Shown: positions 24,726 to 51,454 of the stretch, piece after piece
Numbering within the stretch: position 1 is the first letter of the stretch
How the letters are laid out: each line of letters opens with the position of its first letter
DNA from: Candidatus Eiseniibacteriota bacterium
GTDB lineage: Bacteria; Eisenbacteria; RBG-16-71-46
NCBI GenBank assembly: GCA_044222065.1
Contig: JBGAOA010000025.1
Coordinates: forward strand, 1-53,047
Length of the DNA stretch: 53,047 nt
Direction: 5' to 3'
Notes under the pieces: model-generated
What the model was told of the DNA's origin: nothing
Database searches by the model: none
The model's input: the letters and a program-made list of their open reading frames with translations, nothing else
Program-made: the position numbers and the translations under genes

Positions 24726-25085
24726 ATGAGCGGAAAGCACGATCAGTACGAACGGCGTCGGATCCGCCGCTATCGGATCCGCAAGCGTGTGGTGGGTTCC
24801 ACGGAGCGTCCGCGTCTCTCGGTGTTCCGGAGCTCGAAGCACATCTACGCGCAGATCATCAACGATTTCGACGGCAACACCCTCGTCGCCGCCTCCAGCC
24901 GCGAAACGAAGGGCACGGGCGACGCCGGCAAGACCGGAGTGTCGACGGCCGTGGGCAAGCTGCTCGCCCAGCGCGCGAAGGAGAAGGGCATCACGAAGGT
25001 CAGCTTCGACCGGGGCGGCTACCTGTACCACGGGCGCGTGAAGGCGCTCGCGGACGGTGCGCGCGCCGGCGGTCTGGAATTCTAG
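24726..25085 (+). CDS. rplR: 50S ribosomal protein L18
   Basis: [25 protein letters not shown]. Confidence 0.98.
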
Positions 25086-25095
25086 GAGGACACCC

Positions 25096-25623
25096 GTGCG
25101 AGCGAGCGAAGCTCCGAAGTCCGAATTCACCGAGCGGGTGATCCAGGTCAACCGCTGCGCGAAGGTCGTCAAAGGCGGCCGTCGCTTCTCCTTCAACGCC
25201 ATCGTCGCGATCGGCGACCAGAAGGGCCGCGTCGGCGTCGGCCTCGGCAAGGCCAACGAAGTCGCGGACGCGATCCGCAAGGCGGGCGAGGCGGCGAAGA
25301 AGGGCATGTTCACCGTGCCGGTCACGAAGGCCGGCTCGATCCCGCATCTCGTCGTCGGTCACTTCGGCGCGGGCGAAGTCATGCTGAAGCCCGCCTCGGC
25401 CGGTACGGGCGTGATCGCGGGCGCCGGCGTGCGCGCCGTGCTCGAGGTCGCAGGCGTGCAGAACGTCCTGACGAAGTGCCTCGGCACGCGCAACCCGCAC
25501 AATCTCGTGAAGGCGACCGTGAACGGTCTGCAGCGTCTCCGCCGTCCGTCGGACGTCGCGGCGATGCGCGGCATGAGCACGGCCGAGCTGTTCGGACGAA
25601 AGGGCGAGGGCCATGGCGCGTAA
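25096..25623 (+). CDS. rpsE: 30S ribosomal protein S5
   Basis: [21 protein letters not shown] at 25096 follows an AGGAGG SD. Confidence 0.97.
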
Positions 25624-25798
25624 GCTCCGCATCCGGCAGTTCAAGAGCGCGAGCGGCCATCCCGCCGACCAGGCGGCCACGATCCGCGCGCTCGGCATCC
25701 GCCGTCTCCATCAGATCGTCGAACACAACGACACGCCCCAGATCCGGGGCATGGTCACCAAGGTCCGCCACCTCGTGAAGGTGGAAGAGACCGCGTAA
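25613..25798 (+). CDS. rpmD: 50S ribosomal protein L30
   Basis: [18 protein letters not shown]. Confidence 0.96.
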
Positions 25799-25809
25799 AG
25801 GAAATCACG

Positions 25810-26259
25810 ATGCGCATCGGATCCATTCGCCCGGCTCAGGGCGCCACGAAGAAGCCGAAGCGGCGCGGCAAGGGCACCGCGACCGGTCTCGGCGGCACCG
25901 CGGGCAAGGGCCACAAGGGACACAAGGCGCGCACGGGCGGCAAGATTCCCGCCTGGTTCGAAGGCGGCCAGATGCCGGTGCAGCGCCGGCTGCCGAAGCG
26001 CGGCTTCAAGAACTTCACGCGCGTCGAGTACCAGCCGCTCAACGTCGGCCGCCTCGCGGCCGTCGCGGCCGGCACCGTCGTCGACGCGGCGTGGCTCCAG
26101 CAGCAGCGCTTCATCCGTCGTCGCGGCCCGATCAAGCTGCTCGCGGGCGGCGAGCTGAAGGTGGCGCTCACGGTGAAGGTGGATGCGGCGAGTGCGGCGG
26201 CGAAGAAGGCCGTCGAAGCGGCCGGCGGGACGGTCGTGACTCCGGAGAAGAAGGCCTAG
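25810..26259 (+). CDS. rplO: 50S ribosomal protein L15
   Basis: GKGHKGHKAR, FEGGQMP. Confidence 0.98.
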   Translation: MRIGSIRPAQGATKKPKRRGKGTATGLGGTAGKGHKGHKARTGGKIPAWFEGGQMPVQRRLPKRGFKNFTRVEYQPLNVGRLAAVAAGTVVDAAWLQQQRFIRRRGPIKLLAGGELKVALTVKVDAASAAAKKAVEAAGGTVVTPEKKA

Positions 26260-26265
26260 GAGCCC

Positions 26266-27585
26266 ATGCTCGACAAGCTCAGAAACATCTTCCAGGTCCC
26301 CGAGCTCAAGCGCCGGATTCTGTTCACGCTGGCGCTGTTCGTGGTGTACCGGCTCGGAGAACATGTGCCGACGCCCGGGGTCAACGTGGCCGCGCTCAAG
26401 AGCGCGTTCGCGAGCCAGGCCGGCACGCTCTTCGGCCTGTACGACCTGTTCGTCGGCGGCGCGTTCTCGCGCGCGACGATTTTCGCGCTCGGCATCATGC
26501 CGTACATCTCGTCCTCGATCATCATCCAGCTGCTCGGCGCGGTCGTGCCGTACTTCGAGAAGCTGCGCAAGGAGGGCGAAGAGGGTCAGAAGCGCCTCAA
26601 CCAGATCACGCGCTACGGCACGGTGCTGATCTCGATCATCCAGTCGTTCGGCTACAGCGTCTTCCTCCAGAACCTCGGCGCCTCGCAAGGGCTCACGGTC
26701 GTGCCGCACCCGGGCATCGCGTTCGCGATCTCGACGATCGTGACGCAGACCACGGGCACGATCTTCGTGATGTGGCTGGGCGAGAAGATCACCGAGCACG
26801 GCATCGGCAACGGCATCTCGCTGATCATCTTCGTGAACATCCTCGGCGGCGTTCCGAACCAGACGCTGTCGCTGTGGCAGAGCTTCCAGGCCGGCTCGGT
26901 GTCGCTGTTCCAGATCCTGATCATCGCGGCGATCATGGTGCTCGTCATCGCGGCCGTGATCCTCATGACGCAGGGCACGCGCAAGATTCCGGTGCAGTAC
27001 GCGAAGCGCATCGTCGGCCGCCGCATGTACGGCGGCGCGAACACGCACATCCCGCTGCGCGTGAACAGCGCCGGCGTGATTCCGATCATCTTCGCCTCGA
27101 GCCTCATGATCCTGCCGACGACGATCGCGCAGTTCGTTCCGCACGACTCGCCGCTCGCGCAGATGGGCAACTGGTTCGGCCCGAACACGCCCGCGTACAT
27201 GATCGTGTACGCGCTGATCATCGTGTTCTTCACCTACTTCTACACCGCGGTCGTGCTGAACCCGAACGACCTCGCGGAGAATATGCGCAAGCACGGCGGC
27301 TTCATCCCCGGCATCCGCCCGGGCAAGAAGACCGCCGAGTACATCGACCGGGTGCTCGGCCGGATCACGCTCCCGGGCGCGATCTTCCTCGCCGCGATCG
27401 CCGTGATTCCCGACTGGTTCATCGGCATGTCCGGGGCGCCGTTCCTGTCGTTCGGCGGCACGAGCGTCCTGATCGTGGTCGGCGTCGCGCTCGACACGCT
27501 GCAGCAGATCGAATCGCACCTGCTCATGCGTCACTACGAAGGTTTCGTTTCGCGCGGCCGGATCCGCGGCCGTCAGAGGATGTAG
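26266..27585 (+). CDS. secY: Preprotein translocase subunit SecY
   Basis: ALGIMPYISSSII, GIGNGISLII, IPGIRPG, GGTSVLIVVGV. Confidence 0.99.
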   Translation: MLDKLRNIFQVPELKRRILFTLALFVVYRLGEHVPTPGVNVAALKSAFASQAGTLFGLYDLFVGGAFSRATIFALGIMPYISSSIIIQLLGAVVPYFEKLRKEGEEGQKRLNQITRYGTVLISIIQSFGYSVFLQNLGASQGLTVVPHPGIAFAISTIVTQTTGTIFVMWLGEKITEHGIGNGISLIIFVNILGGVPNQTLSLWQSFQAGSVSLFQILIIAAIMVLVIAAVILMTQGTRKIPVQYAKRIVGRRMYGGANTHIPLRVNSAGVIPIIFASSLMILPTTIAQFVPHDSPLAQMGNWFGPNTPAYMIVYALIIVFFTYFYTAVVLNPNDLAENMRKHGGFIPGIRPGKKTAEYIDRVLGRITLPGAIFLAAIAVIPDWFIGMSGAPFLSFGGTSVLIVVGVALDTLQQIESHLLMRHYEGFVSRGRIRGRQRM

Positions 27586-27590
27586 GAACG

Positions 27591-28253
27591 ATGCGACTCG
27601 TGCTCCTCGGACCGCCCGGCGTGGGCAAGGGAACCCAGGGCCGCCGTCTCGCGACGGCGCGTGGCTGGGCCTTGATCTCCACGGGCGAAATGCTGCGCGA
27701 GGCGGTCGCGAACCGCACCCCGCTCGGCGTCGAGGCGAAGCGCGTGATGGATGCCGGACAGCTCGTGAACGACGACATCATGATCGGGCTCGTGCGCGAA
27801 CGGACGGCGCAGCCGGACGCCGTGCGCGGCTTCCTGCTCGACGGCTTCCCGCGCACGGTGCCGCAGGCCGACGCGCTCCAGCGCGTGCTCGCCGAGCGCG
27901 GGCAGTCGCTCGACGGCGTATTGTTCCTGACCGCGGAAGCGGACGCGCTCGTGTCGCGCATGACGGCGCGCCGCGAGTGTCCGGTCTGCAAGCGGGCGTA
28001 CAACCTGGTGAGTGCCCCGCCGAAGGACGGCCGTCACTGCGACGACCATCCGGACGCGGAGCTGGTGCAGCGCGCCGACGACACCGAAGAGACGGTGCGC
28101 CGCCGCCTCGTTGTCTATCGCGAGCAGACCGAGCCGCTCGTCGCCTACTACCGCGCCGCGAAGCTGCTGCGCGAGGTGCCGGGGCTCGGCGGCATGGACG
28201 AAGTGTTCGAACGACTGCACCGCGTCCTCGAGGGCGCGGGGGCGGGAGCCTGA
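27591..28253 (+). CDS. adk: Adenylate kinase (long, Zn-type LID)
   Basis: P-loop GPPGVGKGTQ, LDGFPRT, LID CPVC...CDDH, QRADD; real start at 27591 within ORF-track ORF 26091..28253. Confidence 0.97.
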   Translation: MRLVLLGPPGVGKGTQGRRLATARGWALISTGEMLREAVANRTPLGVEAKRVMDAGQLVNDDIMIGLVRERTAQPDAVRGFLLDGFPRTVPQADALQRVLAERGQSLDGVLFLTAEADALVSRMTARRECPVCKRAYNLVSAPPKDGRHCDDHPDAELVQRADDTEETVRRRLVVYREQTEPLVAYYRAAKLLREVPGLGGMDEVFERLHRVLEGAGAGA

Positions 28254-28255
28254 CG

Positions 28256-29011
28256 ATGGTGTATCTGCGACAGCCCGACGAGATCGAGCGGATCCGAGAC
28301 GCGGCGCGCCTCGTGGCGCGCACGCTGCGCGAGCTCGAGCGTCACGCCCGGCCGGGCGTCACGACCGGCGAGCTCGACCGGATCGCGGAGGAGTTCATCC
28401 TCGCGAACGGCGGCCGTCCGGCGTTCAAGGGCTACCGCGGATTCCCGGCGTCCATCTGCCCGGCCGTGAACGAGGAAGTCGTGCACGGCATCCCGGGCGA
28501 GCGGACGCTGCGCGACGGCGACATCGTCGGCATCGACGTCGGAGTCGAGAAGGACGGTTTCTTCGGTGACGCCGCGATCACGGTGCCGGTCGGCGAGGTC
28601 GACGGCGAAGCGCTCAACCTGCTGCGCGTCACGCGCGAGGCGCTCGAGAAAGGCATCGCGCAGGCGCGTCCCGGCAATCGCGTCGGGGACATCTCGCACG
28701 CCATCCAGGCGCACGCGGAGCGCTTCGGCTATTCGGTCGTGCGCTCGCTCGTCGGCCACGGCATCGGCCGCGAGATGCACGAGGAACCGCAGGTGCCGAA
28801 CTACGGACCGCCGGAACGCGGCCCGCGCCTCATGGCGGGGCAGGTGCTGGCGATCGAGCCGATGGTGAACATCGGCGCATTCGATGTGGTGACCCAGGCC
28901 GATGGCTGGACGGTCGTGACGAAGGACGGCTCCCTGAGCGCGCACTTCGAGCACACCGTCGCGATCGGTCCGGACGGCCCCGAGATCCTCTCGGTGGCCG
29001 GTGACGTGTAG
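28256..29011 (+). CDS. map: Type I methionine aminopeptidase
   Basis: VHGIP, DVG...GDAA, GHGIG, IEPMV, SAHFEHT. Confidence 0.97.
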   Translation: MVYLRQPDEIERIRDAARLVARTLRELERHARPGVTTGELDRIAEEFILANGGRPAFKGYRGFPASICPAVNEEVVHGIPGERTLRDGDIVGIDVGVEKDGFFGDAAITVPVGEVDGEALNLLRVTREALEKGIAQARPGNRVGDISHAIQAHAERFGYSVVRSLVGHGIGREMHEEPQVPNYGPPERGPRLMAGQVLAIEPMVNIGAFDVVTQADGWTVVTKDGSLSAHFEHTVAIGPDGPEILSVAGDV

Positions 29012-29026
29012 TCCGAGGACATTGGT

Positions 29027-29245
<219 letters not shown>

Positions 29246-29270
29246 AGCGACACGCTCCGGGAGTGGATCG

Positions 29271-29387
29271 ATGAAGGTGCGTACGTCCGTGAAGAAGATC
29301 TGCGAGCACTGCAAGGTCGTGCGTCGCAAGGGCGTGATCCGCGTGATCTGCAGTCGCAATCCGCGGCACAAGCAGCGTCAGAAGTAG
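29271..29387 (+). CDS. rpmJ: 50S ribosomal protein L36
   Basis: Not in ORF track; read manually as [38 protein letters not shown]. Confidence 0.96.
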
Positions 29388-29402
29388 GGGAGGAGAGAAC
29401 CC

Positions 29403-29801
29403 GTGGCACGAATTGCGGGCATTGATTTGCCGGCCGAGAAGCGTATCGAGGTCGCGCTGACTTACATCTACGGGATCGGTCCGGCGACGGCGAAGCGGAT
29501 CCTGAAGACCGCCGGCGTGAGCCCGGACACCCGGGTGAAGGGCCTCAGCGACGAGGACGCCGGCAAGTTGCGCACGATCATCGAGCGCGACTTCAAGGTC
29601 GAGGGCGCACTGCGCAGCGAAATCGCGATGAACATCAAGCGTCTGATGGACATCGGCGCCTACCGCGGCCTGCGTCATCGCCGCGGCCTGCCGGTGCGCG
29701 GTCAGCGCACGAAGACGAACGCGCGCACGCGCAAGGGCCCCAAGAAGACCATGGGCGCGCGCAAGCCTGCGGCGGCCGCGAAGCCGGCGCCGAAGAAGTA
29801 A
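29403..29801 (+). CDS. rpsM: 30S ribosomal protein S13
   Basis: [28 protein letters not shown]. Confidence 0.98.
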
Positions 29802-29846
29802 GCATCAACGTGCGGCTGCCTCGGGCGAGCCGCGTGGAGGATTCGA

Positions 29847-30233
29847 GTGGCGGAAGTCAAGAAGGCCAAGAAGCGTGATCGCCGGGTCTCGACGAACGGC
29901 GTGGCCCACGTGCAGGCGAGCTTCAACAACACGATCATCACGATCACGGACACCGACGGGAACGTCGTGAGCTGGGCGAGCGCCGGCAAGGTCGGCTACA
30001 AGGGCTCGCGCAAGAGCACGCCGTTCGCGGCGCAGGTCGCCGCTGAGGCGAGCGCCCGTGAGGCGCTCAACCTGGGCATGAAGCGCGTCGAGGTCTGGGT
30101 CAAGGGGCCGGGTTCGGGCCGCGAGGCGGCGATCCGCTCGCTGCAGGCGGCGGGCCTCGAGATTTCCGCGATCAAGGACGTGACGCCGATTCCGCACAAC
30201 GGTTGCCGCGCGCCGAAGCGGCGCCGCGTCTAG
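29847..30233 (+). CDS. rpsK: 30S ribosomal protein S11
   Basis: [17 protein letters not shown]. Confidence 0.98.
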
Positions 30234-30247
30234 GAGAACAGGGAGCT

Positions 30248-30877
30248 ATGGCGGTTTATCACGATGCGCGGTGCCGGCTCTGCCGGCGAGAGGGGATGAA
30301 GCTGTTCCTCAAGGGACAGCGCTGCTTCACCGACAAGTGCGCGTTCGAGAAGCGCGGTTACGCGCCCGGCGAGCACGGCAAGAACCGTCGCGTGAAGGAG
30401 ACGAACTACGGCCAGCAGCTGCGCGAGAAGCAGAAGGCGCGGCGCATTTACGGTCTGCTCGAGCGGCAGTTCCGCCACTACTTCGCGAAGGCGTCCGACG
30501 CGAAGGGCGTGACGGGCGAAGTGCTGCTCCAGATGCTCGAGCGCCGGCTCGACAACGTGGTCTTCCGGCTCGGCTTCGCGGCGTCGCGCAACGCGGCGCG
30601 CCAGCTCGTGCGCCACGGCCACGTGTCGGTGAACGGTCGCAAGGTGGACATCCCGTCCGTGCTCGTGCGCTCCGGCGACGAGGTCTCGGTGCGGGACAAG
30701 AGCAAGAAGCTGGCGTCGGTGCTGACGTCCCTGGAAGCCCGCAAGGGCCAGGGCGTCCCGGAATGGCTGGAGCTGAACTCCGATCGCGTGACCGGTCGCG
30801 TGCTGAACATCCCGACGCGCGCCTCCATCCCGGTGCCGATCAACGAGCAGCTCATCGTCGAACTCTATTCGAAGTAA
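30248..30877 (+). CDS. rpsD: 30S ribosomal protein S4
   Basis: CRLCRREG...[28 protein letters not shown] at 30248. Confidence 0.98.
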
Positions 30878-30907
30878 CGGACCGCCACCCTCAGGGAGGC
30901 CTGACGA

Positions 30908-31897
30908 ATGAAGTGGAAGAACCTCACCATGCCGAAGCAGGTCGTGCCGGATTCGGCGAACACCGACGGCTACGGCAAGTTCGTCATCGAGCCGCTCGAG
31001 CGCGGCTTCGGCATCACGCTCGGCAACGCGCTGCGACGCGTTCTGCTTTCGTCGCTGCAGGGCGCCGCGATCACCGCGGTGCGCATTGACGGCGTGCTGC
31101 ACGAGTTCTCGACGCTGCCCGGCGTCATCGAAGACGTCACCGAGATCGTGCTGAACCTGAAGCAGGTCCGTCTCAAGCTGCACGGTGACGGCCCGCAGAA
31201 GGGCACGTTCGAGATGAAGGGCAAGGGCGAGCTGCGCGCCGGCGACCTGCAGGTGGATCCGCAGGTCGAGATCCTCAACCCGGACCTGCACATCGCCACG
31301 CTCAATCGCGACGGCGACCTGCGCATGGAAGTCGAGATCAACACCGGCCGCGGCTACGTGTCGGCCGATCAGCACTCGACGACCGACCGACCGATCGGCG
31401 TGATTCCGATCGACTCCATGTTCTCGCCGGTCACGCGCGTGAACTTCAACGTCGAGGCGACCCGCCTCGGCCAGCGCATCGACTACGACAAGCTGACCAT
31501 GGAAGTGTGGACCGACCGCAGCATCACGCCGACCGACGGCGTGGCGTGGGCGGCGAAGATCCTGCGCGACCACTTCAGCCTGTTCATCCACTTCGACATC
31601 GAGCCCGACGTCGAGCGCGAGGAAGAGGTGGACGAGGAAGTGATGCGCGTCCGCAAGCTGCTCGACAAGAGCGTCGAGGAGCTCGAGCTGTCCGTGCGTT
31701 CGAGCAATTGTCTCCGCGCCGCCGAGATCAAGACGATCGGCGACCTCGTACAGAAGGACGAGTCGGAGATGCTCAAGTTCCGCAACTTCGGCCGCAAGTC
31801 GCTCAAGGAGATCCAGGACCTCCTCGGCGAGATGGGTCTCGGCTTCGGCATGGACATCCGCAAGTACATCGAACCCAGGGCCACCGTCGACGCCTAG
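30908..31897 (+). CDS. rpoA: DNA-directed RNA polymerase subunit alpha
   Basis: EPLERGFGITLGNALRRVLLSS, ELSVRSSNCL, NFGRKSL. Confidence 0.99.
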   Translation: MKWKNLTMPKQVVPDSANTDGYGKFVIEPLERGFGITLGNALRRVLLSSLQGAAITAVRIDGVLHEFSTLPGVIEDVTEIVLNLKQVRLKLHGDGPQKGTFEMKGKGELRAGDLQVDPQVEILNPDLHIATLNRDGDLRMEVEINTGRGYVSADQHSTTDRPIGVIPIDSMFSPVTRVNFNVEATRLGQRIDYDKLTMEVWTDRSITPTDGVAWAAKILRDHFSLFIHFDIEPDVEREEEVDEEVMRVRKLLDKSVEELELSVRSSNCLRAAEIKTIGDLVQKDESEMLKFRNFGRKSLKEIQDLLGEMGLGFGMDIRKYIEPRATVDA

Positions 31898-47989: not shown

Positions 47990-48194
47990 AGCCGCTCGGA
48001 AGCGGATTCCGCCTCAGGTTGCCTGAGTTCGAAACCGCTGAACGAGAAGTCGTTGCGAGGCTCGCCTGCGAGAAAAAAGCTCTTTCCCACAACCCGGTCC
48101 TCTGACATTTTCCTGACGCTTCGCGACCGGGTTACCCCTGCGGGCACTCCCGCGCCCGGCACGACGAAGCGTGACCCCAGCTGGAGGAGTTCGC

Positions 48195-49418
48195 ATGAAG
48201 GCGAAGCATCTCCTGCCGTCGGCCGTGTTGGGTTGTGCCCTGTTCGCCGCCTCAGTCCAGGCCCAGACCGTCACTCCCGAGCGCATGCCGGACGAGATCG
48301 GCAACGGGGGCGTGAGCGAGCGCTGCTCGACGCCGGTCCCGACCGAGAGCGAGATGGCCTCGGTCGCCGCCTACCTCAAGGCGCACCAGAACGAGCTGAG
48401 CACGATGGCCGTCGGCGGCCAGATCAAGGTCGCGTGGCACGTCATCTACAACGGCTCGACGGGGAACATCCCGCAGTCGCAGATCGACGCGCAGATCGCC
48501 GAGCTGAACCTCGCCTACAACGGTTCGCACGGCGGATTCAACACGGGCTACACCTTCGTGCTCGCGTCGGTGGACCGCACGAACAACCGCCAGTGGTTCG
48601 GCTGCACGCCGGGCAGCTCGCGCGAAGTGAACATGAAGAACGCGCTCGCGATCGATCCGATCCATCGCCTGAACGTGTACTCGTGCAGCCCGGGCCAGAG
48701 CCTGCTCGGCTGGGCGTACTTCCCGTGGTCGTACGCCGAGAACAGCAAGATGCACGGCGTCGTGTTCCACTACGCCTCGGTGCCGGGCGGTGCGCTTTCG
48801 CCGTACAACCTCGGCGGCACGCTCGACCACGAAGTCGGCCACTACCTCGGCCTCTACCACACGTTCCAGGGCGGCTGCACCGCTCCCGGCGACCAGGTGG
48901 ACGACACCCCGTACGAGGCGACCGCGACGACGGGCTGCCCGGCCGGCAAGAACACCTGCGCCGCGGCCGGCGACGATCCGATCCACAACTACATGGATTA
49001 CTCGTACGACGCCTGCTACACGCAGTTCACGGCCGGTCAGGACGTGCGCATGGACGCGGCGGTGCCCGCGTACCGCCCGAACCTGCTGAACGCCGCGGTC
49101 GCGCAGGGCATCGTGAAGTCGCCGGCGACGGAGCTCGGCTCGCGCGCGCTCACGGCGGTGCAGTTCCGCGGCGCGACGCCGAATCCGTTCCGCGTCGAGA
49201 CGCAGCTGCGCTTCGCGCTCCCGCAGGCGGGCCACGTGTCGCTGCGCGTCTACAACGTCGCCGGCCAGCTCGTCGAGACCGTCGTGGACGGCACGCTGTC
49301 CGCGGGCGAGCACTCGGCGCGCTTCGCGGCGAAGTCGCTGCCGTCGGGCATGTACTTCGCGCAGCTCAAGCTCGGCAACGGCGAGACGGTCGGCCGTACG
49401 GTCGTGCTCATCGACTGA
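48195..49418 (+). CDS. Secreted M43 (pappalysin/ulilysin-like) zinc metalloprotease with a T9SS-type-A/FlgD-like C-terminal domain
   Basis: GGAGG SD, signal peptide, HEVGHYLGLYH, Met-turn NYMDY, C-terminal PNPF...YNVAGQLV...LPSGMYF. Confidence 0.9.
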   Translation: MKAKHLLPSAVLGCALFAASVQAQTVTPERMPDEIGNGGVSERCSTPVPTESEMASVAAYLKAHQNELSTMAVGGQIKVAWHVIYNGSTGNIPQSQIDAQIAELNLAYNGSHGGFNTGYTFVLASVDRTNNRQWFGCTPGSSREVNMKNALAIDPIHRLNVYSCSPGQSLLGWAYFPWSYAENSKMHGVVFHYASVPGGALSPYNLGGTLDHEVGHYLGLYHTFQGGCTAPGDQVDDTPYEATATTGCPAGKNTCAAAGDDPIHNYMDYSYDACYTQFTAGQDVRMDAAVPAYRPNLLNAAVAQGIVKSPATELGSRALTAVQFRGATPNPFRVETQLRFALPQAGHVSLRVYNVAGQLVETVVDGTLSAGEHSARFAAKSLPSGMYFAQLKLGNGETVGRTVVLID

Positions 49419-49448
49419 GGACCGCACGCGGGCATCGAACCGCCCGTT

Positions 49449-49482
49449 CGGGGCCGGCCCCACCGCCGGCCCCGTCGTTTTT
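49449..49482 (+). terminator. Probable intrinsic terminator after the M43 protease
   Basis: Stem CGGGGCCGGC/GCCGGCCCCG followed by TCGTTTTT. Confidence 0.7.
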
Positions 49483-49530
49483 CCGGCCCGCCGCTGACAC
49501 CCGCGCGCGCGCTGTGGCACAGTGCGGACC

Positions 49531-51454
49531 GTGACGTTCTCACCTCCACTCCGCGACGTGCGCGACGCGCTCCAGCGGCTGGCGCTCGCGCGACTCGCGC
49601 CCGGAGCGCCCGCCGCCGGCGCGCGCACGCTGCTCGTGGACGCGCGCGCCCAGCGGCTGTGGCTGTTCGAGGGCGACGAGCCCCGCGAGTCGTGGTTCTG
49701 CTCGACCTCGGCGCGCGGCCTCGGCGGGCGCGAAGGCTCGAACCGCACGCCGCTCGGCTGGCACCGCATCGCCCGGGCGATCGGCGCGGGAGCGCCGTAC
49801 GGCGCGGTCTTCGAATCCCGCGAGCCGACGGGAGAGGTGTGGCGCGCCGGCAGCGAGGATCGCGACCTCATCCTGACCCGCATCCTCACGCTCGAAGGCC
49901 TCGAGCCCGACGTGAACCGCGGCCCCGGCTGCGACTCGCTCGAGCGCTACATCTACGTGCACGGCACGAATCACGAGGACTGGCTCGGAGTGCCCGCCTC
50001 GCACGGCTGCGTGCGGCTCGCGAACGACGCGATGCTCGAGCTGTTCGACCTCGTCCGCCCCGGCGACGCGCTCGTCGTCGTGGACGCGCCCGCGACCGTG
50101 CCCGCCGTCGCGGGCCCGGGACGCTTCCACTACGCCGGACTCGGCGGCAGCGGCATGAGCGCGCTCGCTCAGTTCCAGGCGATGCGTGGCGGACGCGCGA
50201 GCGGGAGCGACCGCTCCTTCGATCGCGGCGAGCGCCCCGAATCGCGCCGTCAGCTCGAAACGCTCGGCATCGCGGTGACGCCCCAGGACGGCTCGGGCGT
50301 CGGCCGCGACTTCGACCGCGGTCGAGAACACGGTGCCGGATGTCGAGCGCGCGAAGGCGCGCGGCGTGCGCATCCTCCACCGCTCGGACCTGCTCGCGCA
50401 CTTCGTCGCGCGCCACCGCACGATCGCGGTGAGCGGCACGAGCGGAAAGTCCACCGTCACGGCGATGGCGTTCGAGATCCTGTGGGGCGCGGGCCGCGAT
50501 CCGTCCGTGATCACGGGCGGCGACCTCGTGCTGCTCGAGGAGCGCGGCCTGTGGGGGAACGCCTGGGCCGGCGGCTCGGACCTGCTCGTCGTCGAGGCCG
50601 ACGAGAGCGACGGCTCGCTCGTGCGCTACGAGCCCGCGGTCGGCGTGATCCTGAACCTGCAGCGCGACCACAAGGGCGAGTCCGAAGTCGCCGCGATGTT
50701 CGAGACCTTCGCGGCCCGCACGCGCGAGGCGGTCGTGAAGGGCGAGGACGCCAACCTTGCGGGAATCGCGCCGGGTGCGCGCGTGTTCGGCTTCGGCGAC
50801 GGCGCGGACGTCCGGGGCGAGGACGCCGGCACGACGCCCGAGGGCGCCGCGTTCGAAGTGCGCGGCGTGCGCTTCACGCTGCCCGTGCCCGGACGGCACA
50901 ACGTCGCGAACGCGCTCGCCGCGATCGCCGCGTGCGAGGCGGTCGGCGTGCCGCTCGACGCGATGGTCGCGCCGCTCGCGCGTTTCCGCGGCGTCGGCCG
51001 CCGCTTCCAGCGCGTCGGCGTCGCGCGCGGGATCGAGGTCGTGGACGACTTCGCCCACAATCCGGCCAAGGTCGAGGCGGCGATCGCGACGGCGCGCGCG
51101 CGCGCCGGCCGCGTGCTCGCGATCTACCAGCCGCACGGCTACGGACCGACGCGCTTCCTGCGCGCCGACTTCGTCGCGAGCTTCGCGAAGGCGCTCGGGC
51201 CCGAGGACCGGCTGTGGTGGCTCGAGGTGTTCTACGCGGGCGGCACGGCGACGCGCGACTTCTCGAGCGCCGACATCGTCGCCGAGATCGCCGAACGCGG
51301 AGCGAACGCGCAGTTCGCGCCGTCGCGCGAGTGGCTCGTCGAGCGCGTCGCCGCCGAGGCGCGGCCCGGCGACCTCGTGCTCGTGATGGGCGCCCGCGAT
51401 CCGTCGCTCAGCGCGCTCGCTCGCGCGATCTTCGACGCGATCGAGCGGGGCTGA
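49531..51454 (+). pseudogene. Frameshifted fusion: signal-peptide-less YkuD (L,D-transpeptidase-fold, ElsL-like) domain plus MurC/Mpl-like UDP-MurNAc ligase
   Basis: First frame has TPLGWH, ILTRIL, YIYVHGT...SHGCVRL then HYAGLGGSGMSALA..SGSD; the frame changes at 50311/50312 and continues STAVE...GTSGKST...EADESD...GVGRRF...DDFAHNP...QPH. Could be an assembly error rather than a true pseudogene. Confidence 0.72.
50333..51454 (+). CDS. MurC/Mpl-like Mur ligase central and C-terminal domains (downstream frame of the broken fusion)
   Basis: P-loop SGTSGKST, VEADESDG, NLQRDH, HNVANALAA, DDFAHNP, YQPH, VMGA. Confidence 0.8.
   Translation: MPDVERAKARGVRILHRSDLLAHFVARHRTIAVSGTSGKSTVTAMAFEILWGAGRDPSVITGGDLVLLEERGLWGNAWAGGSDLLVVEADESDGSLVRYEPAVGVILNLQRDHKGESEVAAMFETFAARTREAVVKGEDANLAGIAPGARVFGFGDGADVRGEDAGTTPEGAAFEVRGVRFTLPVPGRHNVANALAAIAACEAVGVPLDAMVAPLARFRGVGRRFQRVGVARGIEVVDDFAHNPAKVEAAIATARARAGRVLAIYQPHGYGPTRFLRADFVASFAKALGPEDRLWWLEVFYAGGTATRDFSSADIVAEIAERGANAQFAPSREWLVERVAAEARPGDLVLVMGARDPSLSALARAIFDAIERG

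Follow-up and report, generated by a model that had tools for sequence, protein, structure and literature searches.

Published studies credit direct reuse of cell wall peptides to the ligase Mpl and assume that species lacking both Mpl and LdcA break such peptides down to amino acids (PMC13046382, PMC9790009); papers on Caulobacter and Agrobacterium take the absence of both enzymes to imply peptide degradation (PMC13046382, PMC11980594, PMC9790009). Mpl acting without a carboxypeptidase makes toxic UDP-N-acetylmuramic acid (UDP-MurNAc)-tetrapeptide (10.1101/771642; PMC8630537), and ElsL is a cytoplasmic L,D-carboxypeptidase that converts tetrapeptides to tripeptides and requires Cys138 (PMC8649774). 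Here we analyze a 53,047-nucleotide (nt) contig from a Candidatus Eisenbacteria genome (the window, meaning this whole stretch; the genome is designated G000), which carries a gene (49531..51454) that fuses a YkuD domain of the ElsL type to a ligase of the MurC family. All features of the window whose positions are given below lie on the forward strand. We regard the gene as a variant of the known recycling pathway that points to an uncharacterised enzyme family; the intact protein is probably a recycling ligase equivalent to Mpl and coupled to tetrapeptide trimming, its activities, substrate and channelling being predictions from sequence.

The YkuD half shares with ElsL (LdtK, Acinetobacter baumannii; PMC8649774, PMC8630537) the YkuD subfamily by profile, the catalytic His and Cys, the lack of a signal peptide and an occurrence in genomes without LdcA; unlike ElsL, it is fused to or adjoins a Mur ligase, and the fused domains score 126–143 bits on the ElsL model NF040925, below its curated cut-off of 270. 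The proposed reaction, a MurC-like gene outside the division and cell wall (dcw) cluster, the dependence on a carboxypeptidase and a Phe at the position of Tyr346 recall Mpl (TIGR01081; PDB 3HN7; PMC3060825), but the ligase forms a separate clade, lacks the EPRSN motif and does not co-occur with Mpl in the genome samples. MurC (TIGR01082; PDB 1P3D) is nearest in profile and fold, with the same three-domain fold and ATP/Mg residues; the ligase differs in falling below the MurC cut-off, in changes of the acceptor domain described below, and in being an extra copy outside the dcw cluster. LdcA and other S66 enzymes (PF02016, PF17676) have the partner role beside unfused alphaproteobacterial ligases and are present genome-wide in relatives that have the ligase only; their fold is unrelated to that of YkuD, and no fusion to the ligase was found among the long proteins scored. 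The murC2 gene of Frankia is set apart by its description only: it is placed by murG, and recycling is unmentioned in the available text (PMC7231273). Full-text literature searches, with subscription papers and the 2025 review by Gilmore and Cava outside their reach, gave no account of the fusion or the clade, in agreement with a preliminary description of this DNA in which the fusion was thought to be undescribed.

The Fused Gene

The protein would have about 646 amino acids (aa) if intact; as assembled, a frameshift interrupts the gene at about 50311. The frame 49531–50313 is stop-free and contains a YkuD domain at aa 32–183 (PF03734, 77.8 bits against a cut-off of 23.4) and the start of a Mur ligase N-terminal domain at aa 199–249 (PF01225, 24 bits against a cut-off of 21), which confirms the single reading frame from YkuD through an Ala/Pro linker into a Mur ligase that had been described earlier. 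An N-terminal extension (49531..49623) contains an amphipathic helix (residues 12–26 in the model of the homolog P0003) and is not signal-peptide-like by hydropathy; it is followed by the YkuD domain, a putative cytoplasmic L,D-carboxypeptidase (49624..50079), the Ala/Pro linker that forms the domain junction (50083..50124) and the first part of the UDP-binding N-terminal ligase domain (50125..50310). Beyond the frameshift site (50311..50314), a second frame (50315..51454) holds the rest of that domain, the ATP-binding middle domain (PF08245) and the C-terminal acceptor domain (PF02875).

The junction lies approximately 190–225 nt upstream of the frame break, so the break does not create the fusion; the preliminary figure of about 200 nt was correct. 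No stop or indel separates the two domains, and contigs of two studies bridge the junction without a gap. The gene is outside the dcw cluster, as a recycling paralog would be expected to be according to the preliminary description, and this reading is upheld by a canonical murC located elsewhere in G000, beside other Mur ligases on contig C51.

The YkuD Half

The best NCBIfam model for the YkuD part is that of ElsL (NF040925, 140 bits), with the next YkuD model at 26 bits. Reciprocally, a profile of the fused domains gives 130–180 bits to 30 gamma- and betaproteobacterial ElsL-like proteins and at most 37 bits to the three other YkuD proteins recovered, and the membership in the ElsL subfamily proposed from the motifs therefore stands. 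The curated cut-off of NF040925 is reached by none of 201 gammaproteobacterial genomes, whose 150 listed ElsL-like matches score 118–210 bits, an interval into which the window's 140 bits fall; the cut-off is thus narrower than the published ElsL family. The subfamily call rests on these profile scores because the YkuD tree, with three outgroup rows and long branches, is weakly supported (support 94).

The catalytic motif, His144 ... Ser157-His-Gly-Cys160 (49960..50010), is complete; its H, S, G and C residues are invariant in 38 of 38 aligned homologs, and the strict motif occurs in 113 of 120. Taken over 12 residues, hydropathy within the first 45 aa peaks at 1.0 in the window and exceeds 2.0 in none of 120 homologs, and by this crude test the absence of a signal peptide noted earlier holds. 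Together with the fusion to an enzyme that uses ATP and a UDP-sugar, this suggests a cytoplasmic location for the YkuD half. An exported L,D-transpeptidase was considered and is ruled out by the ElsL profile score and the lack of a signal-like start.

The ortholog survey of ElsL describes stand-alone proteins of 105–200 aa, and proteins longer than 200 aa were discarded (PMC8649774). The approximately 650-aa fusion falls outside that working definition, and the filter explains why fusions went unreported there; a term search of the survey's supplements found no entry for Geothrix, Methyloceanibacter or Fibrobacter.

The Ligase Half

By sequence, the ligase belongs to a third lineage, distinct from Mpl and from canonical MurC, with a rebuilt acceptor pocket. 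Of the "MurC/Mpl-like" label that it had been given, the assignment to the MurC family stands, and the equation with Mpl (117 bits at best, against 389) or with canonical MurC (285 against 335) does not. The window's own part, 50315–51454, scores 245 bits on TIGR01082 and 99 on TIGR01081; intact fusions reach 276–285 bits on the MurC model and alphaproteobacterial members 258–334, and fusions score 99–117 bits on the Mpl model, which has a cut-off of 388.7.

In a tree with 99 rows, sampled from 163 collected sequences and joined by the window's C-terminal half, fused, split and stand-alone members (59 rows) group in one clade with a Shimodaira-Hasegawa-like approximate likelihood ratio test (SH-aLRT) support of 100, apart from Mpl (10 rows, support 100) and from MurC. 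Membership in Mpl is ruled out by this clade, by the profile score and by the acceptor motif, QPHGYGP for EPRSN. A grouping of the clade with Mpl as neighbors is not rejected (approximately unbiased test, p 0.498, 57 rows); since the tree does not settle whether Mpl or MurC is the sister group, convergence from MurC is not claimed.

All rows share the P-loop Lys (50447–50449 in the window), both Glu residues, His198 and His348; the clade also retains Gln374 and His376 of MurC. The motif QPHGYGP (51128..51148) stands in place of QPHRYSR of MurC, with loss of the two arginines that bind L-Ala in the Haemophilus influenzae enzyme: at the position of Arg377, 118 of 120 fused rows and all 27 alphaproteobacterial rows have Gly, against Arg in 39 of 44 MurC, and at that of Arg380, 119 of the 120 and again all 27 have Pro, against Arg in 44 of 44 MurC. 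In DDFAHNP (51044..51064; DDYGHHP in MurC), Tyr346 is replaced by Phe, as in 10 of 10 Mpl sequences, and His349 by Asn. The GAG of MurC, with Gly in 44 of 44 sequences, is GAR in this clade (118 of the 120 fused rows and each of the 27 alphaproteobacterial ones); this clade-specific Arg, in the motif MGARD (51386..51400), is a candidate contact for the carboxylate of a peptide. Residue numbers follow motif matches in the alignment and the residues listed in PMC3060825. Fused rows were chosen by their YkuD part and 22 of the 27 alphaproteobacterial rows by profile score (a separate set of loci was motif-selected), so the residue counts are not a product of selection by motif. An AlphaFold model of P0003 has a mean predicted local distance difference test (pLDDT) of 87 and a predicted template modeling (pTM) score of 0.73.

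Pairing with L,D-Carboxypeptidases

The main functional evidence, and a stronger argument than the fusion alone, is that the same ligase is paired with a second, unrelated family of L,D-carboxypeptidases. In a sample of 201 alphaproteobacterial genomes, the clade was found in 25 (26 loci), and an S66/LdcA-type gene lies within 1.5 kb of the unfused ligase at 20 of the 26 loci (9 in tandem, 11 divergent). The local S66 profile was built from five sequences, one of them the gene at locus L127 itself, so that locus counts by construction; Pfam confirms S66 for five such neighbor genes. Genome-wide, S66 is present in 24 of 25 carriers versus 29 of 176 non-carriers (Fisher p 2e-15, overstated since related genomes are not independent).

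Among relatives of the window's genome, the two carboxypeptidases complement one another. None of the 27 genomes in families f1 and f2 has S66, whereas 25 of them have an ElsL-type domain, and G000 itself has no S66; in family f3, S66 is found in 10 of 10 genomes, including two that have the fusion plus a weaker S66 and all six that carry only the ligase. Those six have no ElsL-type domain. Three class-level outgroups lack ligase, ElsL and S66 alike. This complementarity probably reflects one or two evolutionary events. With fusion to an ElsL-type domain in some lineages and adjacency to S66 in others, the ligase is thus joined to two unrelated enzyme families that both include enzymes converting tetrapeptides to tripeptides.

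Conservation and Distribution of the Fusion

Proteins of 458–2000 aa were searched with the YkuD part, which gave 688 matches from 2792 candidates, and all 120 of those listed have YkuD plus three Mur domains; intact fused homologs, whose absence would have told against the earlier proposal, are therefore common. They are about 650 aa long (630–690 aa) and occur in Ca. Eisenbacteria, Methyloceanibacter, Parvibaculaceae, Krumholzibacteriia, Nitrospirota and a deltaproteobacterium, as well as in the cultured Geothrix sp. 21YS21S-4 (WP_306589806.1) and Mesoterricola silvestris (WP_316415473.1); unfused members are found in Sphingomonas, Erythrobacter (WP_115416954.1, S66-linked) and Novosphingobium.

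Eighty metagenome loci were picked by the ligase half alone, 66 with enough upstream DNA and 14 without. The 66 comprise 60 intact fusions, five with an adjacent YkuD gene, one fusion with an internal stop and no ligase-only locus. Among 40 relatives there are 19 full-length fusions, four fusions cut by contig ends or frameshifts, four split but adjacent pairs, six ligase-only copies and one partial gene at a contig end; the remaining six lack the gene. Five of the ligase-only copies share the M43 metallopeptidase gene found upstream of the fusion in the window (48171..49418), a syntenic marker that recurs at nine loci, and the YkuD half was therefore probably deleted in place there. Because split, ligase-only and S66-linked forms exist, fusion is not obligatory, and channelling between the two sites can only be postulated.

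The Frame Break

The motifs QDGSG and STAVE, which flank the break, are 10 residues apart in 76 of 89 homolog matches and 9, 11 or 13 residues apart in the other 13; in the window they are separated by 13 nt, 17 nt short of the commonest spacing. Contigs of four public runs (X1, X2, X3 and X7) were compared with the gene. Record 1 of X1 and record 17 of X3, from two studies and both covering 49400–50314, cross the domain junction gap-free, one of these runs possibly being the window's source sample. No contig listed for the four runs reads across the break in the window's form, with X7 giving no cover there; those of X1, X2 and X3 end their alignment at 50310–50314 with 2–26 unaligned letters (24, 26, 4 and 2 nt). 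The overhangs, whose letters were not displayed, are compatible with a frame restored by 17 nt.

The gap is probably an assembly artefact or a lesion private to the strain, and the window's copy is probably intact in the organism. It seems rather unlikely that the organism truly carries the 17-nt deletion in fixed form, which would leave this one copy as an ElsL domain with a junk tail (a 675-aa open reading frame [ORF]) and its ligase lost. The break is present in the assembly, no contig reads through the site in either form, and a search of Joint Genome Institute (JGI) metagenomes found no intact copy of the same species (best match 76% identity); yet near-identical contigs of three studies diverge at 50310–50314 with extra letters, as a 17-nt insertion would make them do, and both halves of the gene, at approximately 65–78% identity to intact homologs, show no further decay. 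Two other origins were rejected: creation of the fusion by a frameshift or a chimeric assembly is ruled out by the intact homologs and by the contigs that bridge the junction, and a programmed frameshift is ruled out because homologs read through the site in one unbroken frame.

Proposed Function and Alternatives

In the mechanism that we favor, the ElsL-type domain would remove the terminal D-Ala (D-Ala4) from recycled tetrapeptide stems in the cytoplasm, acting on stems that are free or already attached to UDP-MurNAc, in either order. The ligase would join the tripeptide to UDP-MurNAc, yielding a product that feeds MurF, and the pairing with a carboxypeptidase would prevent a dead-end UDP-MurNAc-tetrapeptide. 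The preliminary description had seen in the fusion a coupling of trimming with re-ligation; the fusion and the recycling paralog are borne out, and we infer, rather than observe, the ligation of tripeptide and the channelling. G000 has a canonical murC besides the clade ligase, as do 22 of the 25 alphaproteobacterial carriers. Mpl was found in none of the 201 alphaproteobacterial genomes, and nothing in G000 exceeds its cut-off; in the gammaproteobacterial sample, whose tallies include the unpublished genome G482, Mpl is present in 182 of 201 genomes and the ligase clade in none. Other recycling parts of G000 include a cluster with MurQ, AnmK and a sugar ATP-binding cassette (ABC) permease, and also class-5 peptide-binding proteins and Amidase_3 enzymes; an import of free peptides would fit this set.

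A number of observations weigh against this mechanism. The mutual exclusion of Mpl and the clade runs along class lines and has little statistical force; an AmpD-type amidase is missing from G000, and AmpG is represented at most by a weakly similar member of the major facilitator superfamily (MFS). The gene is also broken by frameshifts in three relatives, at different positions (G003:C87, G011:C6 and G015:C182), which may be assembly errors or signs of relaxed selection. In Bacteroidota, the ligase occurs in 7 of 201 genomes with no carboxypeptidase adjacent among the neighbors scanned; all seven have S66, a co-occurrence made uninformative by the baseline of 192 of 201 genomes. In G044, a Nitrospiraceae genome, the ligase is accompanied by neither an S66 match nor a YkuD match in the ElsL-like group. 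The remaining points concern the ligase itself: it is nearer to MurC than to Mpl by profile (285 versus 117 bits) and by fold (Foldseek template modeling [TM] score of the P0003 model 0.88 to 1p3d versus 0.70 to Mpl 3hn7), and it has QPHG[YF]GP where Mpl has EPRSN (EPRSNT). Moreover, three small alphaproteobacterial genomes of 1.4–1.7 Mb (G041, G094 and G241) have MurD, MurE and MurF and no canonical MurC, and their only MurC-like proteins fall in the fused-ligase clade. The variants in these genomes (L152 in G041, L148 in G094 and L140 in G241) carry QPHTPFS or QSHKPLS and so lack both arginines, which makes arginine loss compatible with ligation of L-Ala; on this sequence evidence, some clade members probably add L-Ala.

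These last points would suit a MurC isozyme, a further ligase for one amino acid (L-Ala, Gly or Ser) that is linked to carboxypeptidases only through co-regulation of wall metabolism, an explanation that we consider unlikely. Besides the closeness to MurC, the retention of Gln374 and His376 and the three genomes in which a clade member is the sole MurC-like enzyme, it can draw on an Elusimicrobia copy located between dapA-asd-dapB and two other Mur ligases (L020:3556-10358) and on a Bacteroidales copy that adjoins mraZ-mraW (L022:4288-5739); Frankia offers a precedent for a paralog that takes over from murC (PMC7231273). However, an isozyme leaves unexplained both the pairing with two unrelated carboxypeptidase families and the complementarity of ElsL and S66. 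The MurC-less genomes use a derived sub-clade, nested in the alphaproteobacterial group, with a changed motif, and G041 keeps both this variant and the S66-linked type. Since Mpl ligates L-Ala weakly (0.7 versus 260 per min; PMC3060825), a MurC replacement could plausibly have arisen from a peptide ligase. It is more doubtful still that the pair performs another peptide chemistry, in which the acceptor is a dipeptide, a tetra- or pentapeptide or a stem without meso-diaminopimelate, or YkuD is a cytoplasmic L,D-transpeptidase that swaps the terminal D-amino acid. YkuD enzymes commonly catalyze both hydrolysis and exchange, the YkuD domain here scores at half the ElsL cut-off, and the acceptor pocket, with Asn349, Gly377, Pro380 and the new Arg in GAR, is unlike those of MurC and Mpl; against this, the S66 hydrolases that replace the YkuD partner elsewhere point to plain removal of D-Ala, and tripeptide is the stem whose ligation gives a product that MurF can use next (10.1101/771642).

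The Mpl-equivalent function can be extended into a wider interpretation, in which we have even confidence. A widespread third lineage of the MurC family would fill the place of Mpl in Sphingomonadales and other Alphaproteobacteria, Chitinophagaceae and other Bacteroidota, Ca. Eisenbacteria, Holophagae, Nitrospirota and Fibrobacterota, and would have been paired independently with two unrelated carboxypeptidase folds. Its fused form would pass the trimmed peptide directly to the ligase site, so avoiding toxic UDP-MurNAc-tetrapeptide, and in one small-genome alphaproteobacterial lineage a duplicate would have displaced MurC.

Neighboring Genes and Other Observations

Apart from carboxypeptidases, no wall-related neighbor recurs across phyla in the neighborhoods scanned. 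In Bacteroidota, soluble lytic transglycosylase (SLT) genes lie beside two ligases (L013:7650-8723, L018:7504-8817), and most S66 enzymes of that sample have no partner of this ligase clade (no Mpl search was made there). A YkuD protein with a scaffold domain is encoded beside one fusion (L006:7993-9876). No S66-ligase fusion was found among proteins of at least 526 aa (8000 candidates scored), the 29 long matches without YkuD also being without S66. Database proteins of 730–776 aa (P0127, P0135, P0145 and similar) are alphaproteobacterial ligases with N-terminal extensions that have no Pfam match; their clusters mix members of 762–768 aa with others of 464–475 aa, and the long forms are probably mis-called starts that run into a divergent neighbor gene.

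The amino-sugar cluster of G000 (L118:6922-13426, on contig C69 at approximately 24900–31400) encodes MurQ (over cut-off), AnmK, a SpoIID/LytB protein, two ABC sugar permease domains and, as an unassigned ORF, a protein of 446 aa. The cluster points to an ABC system as the path of wall sugars in G000, where neither AmpG nor AmpD is clearly present. In the window, the M43 metallopeptidase has a C-terminal Por_Secre_tail-like domain. The guanine-plus-cytosine (GC) content of positions 1–32000 is 64–68%, versus 69–74% to the right, and the sizes and order of the ORFs there resemble rpoBC and ribosomal-protein operons, which they may represent.

Implications for Cell Wall Peptide Reuse

The fusion probably lets many bacteria thought to lack peptide reuse return peptides to new wall. 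If so, a second ligase family with an unrelated pocket would extend peptide reuse to several phyla, and many annotations as "murC" or "L,D-transpeptidase" would have to be corrected. The idea is cheap to test, with intact fusions and unfused members present in cultured genera and an Escherichia coli dapD mpl reporter strain in existence (PMC9928106). The clade also offers a natural comparison for the evolution of acceptor specificity in Mur ligases.

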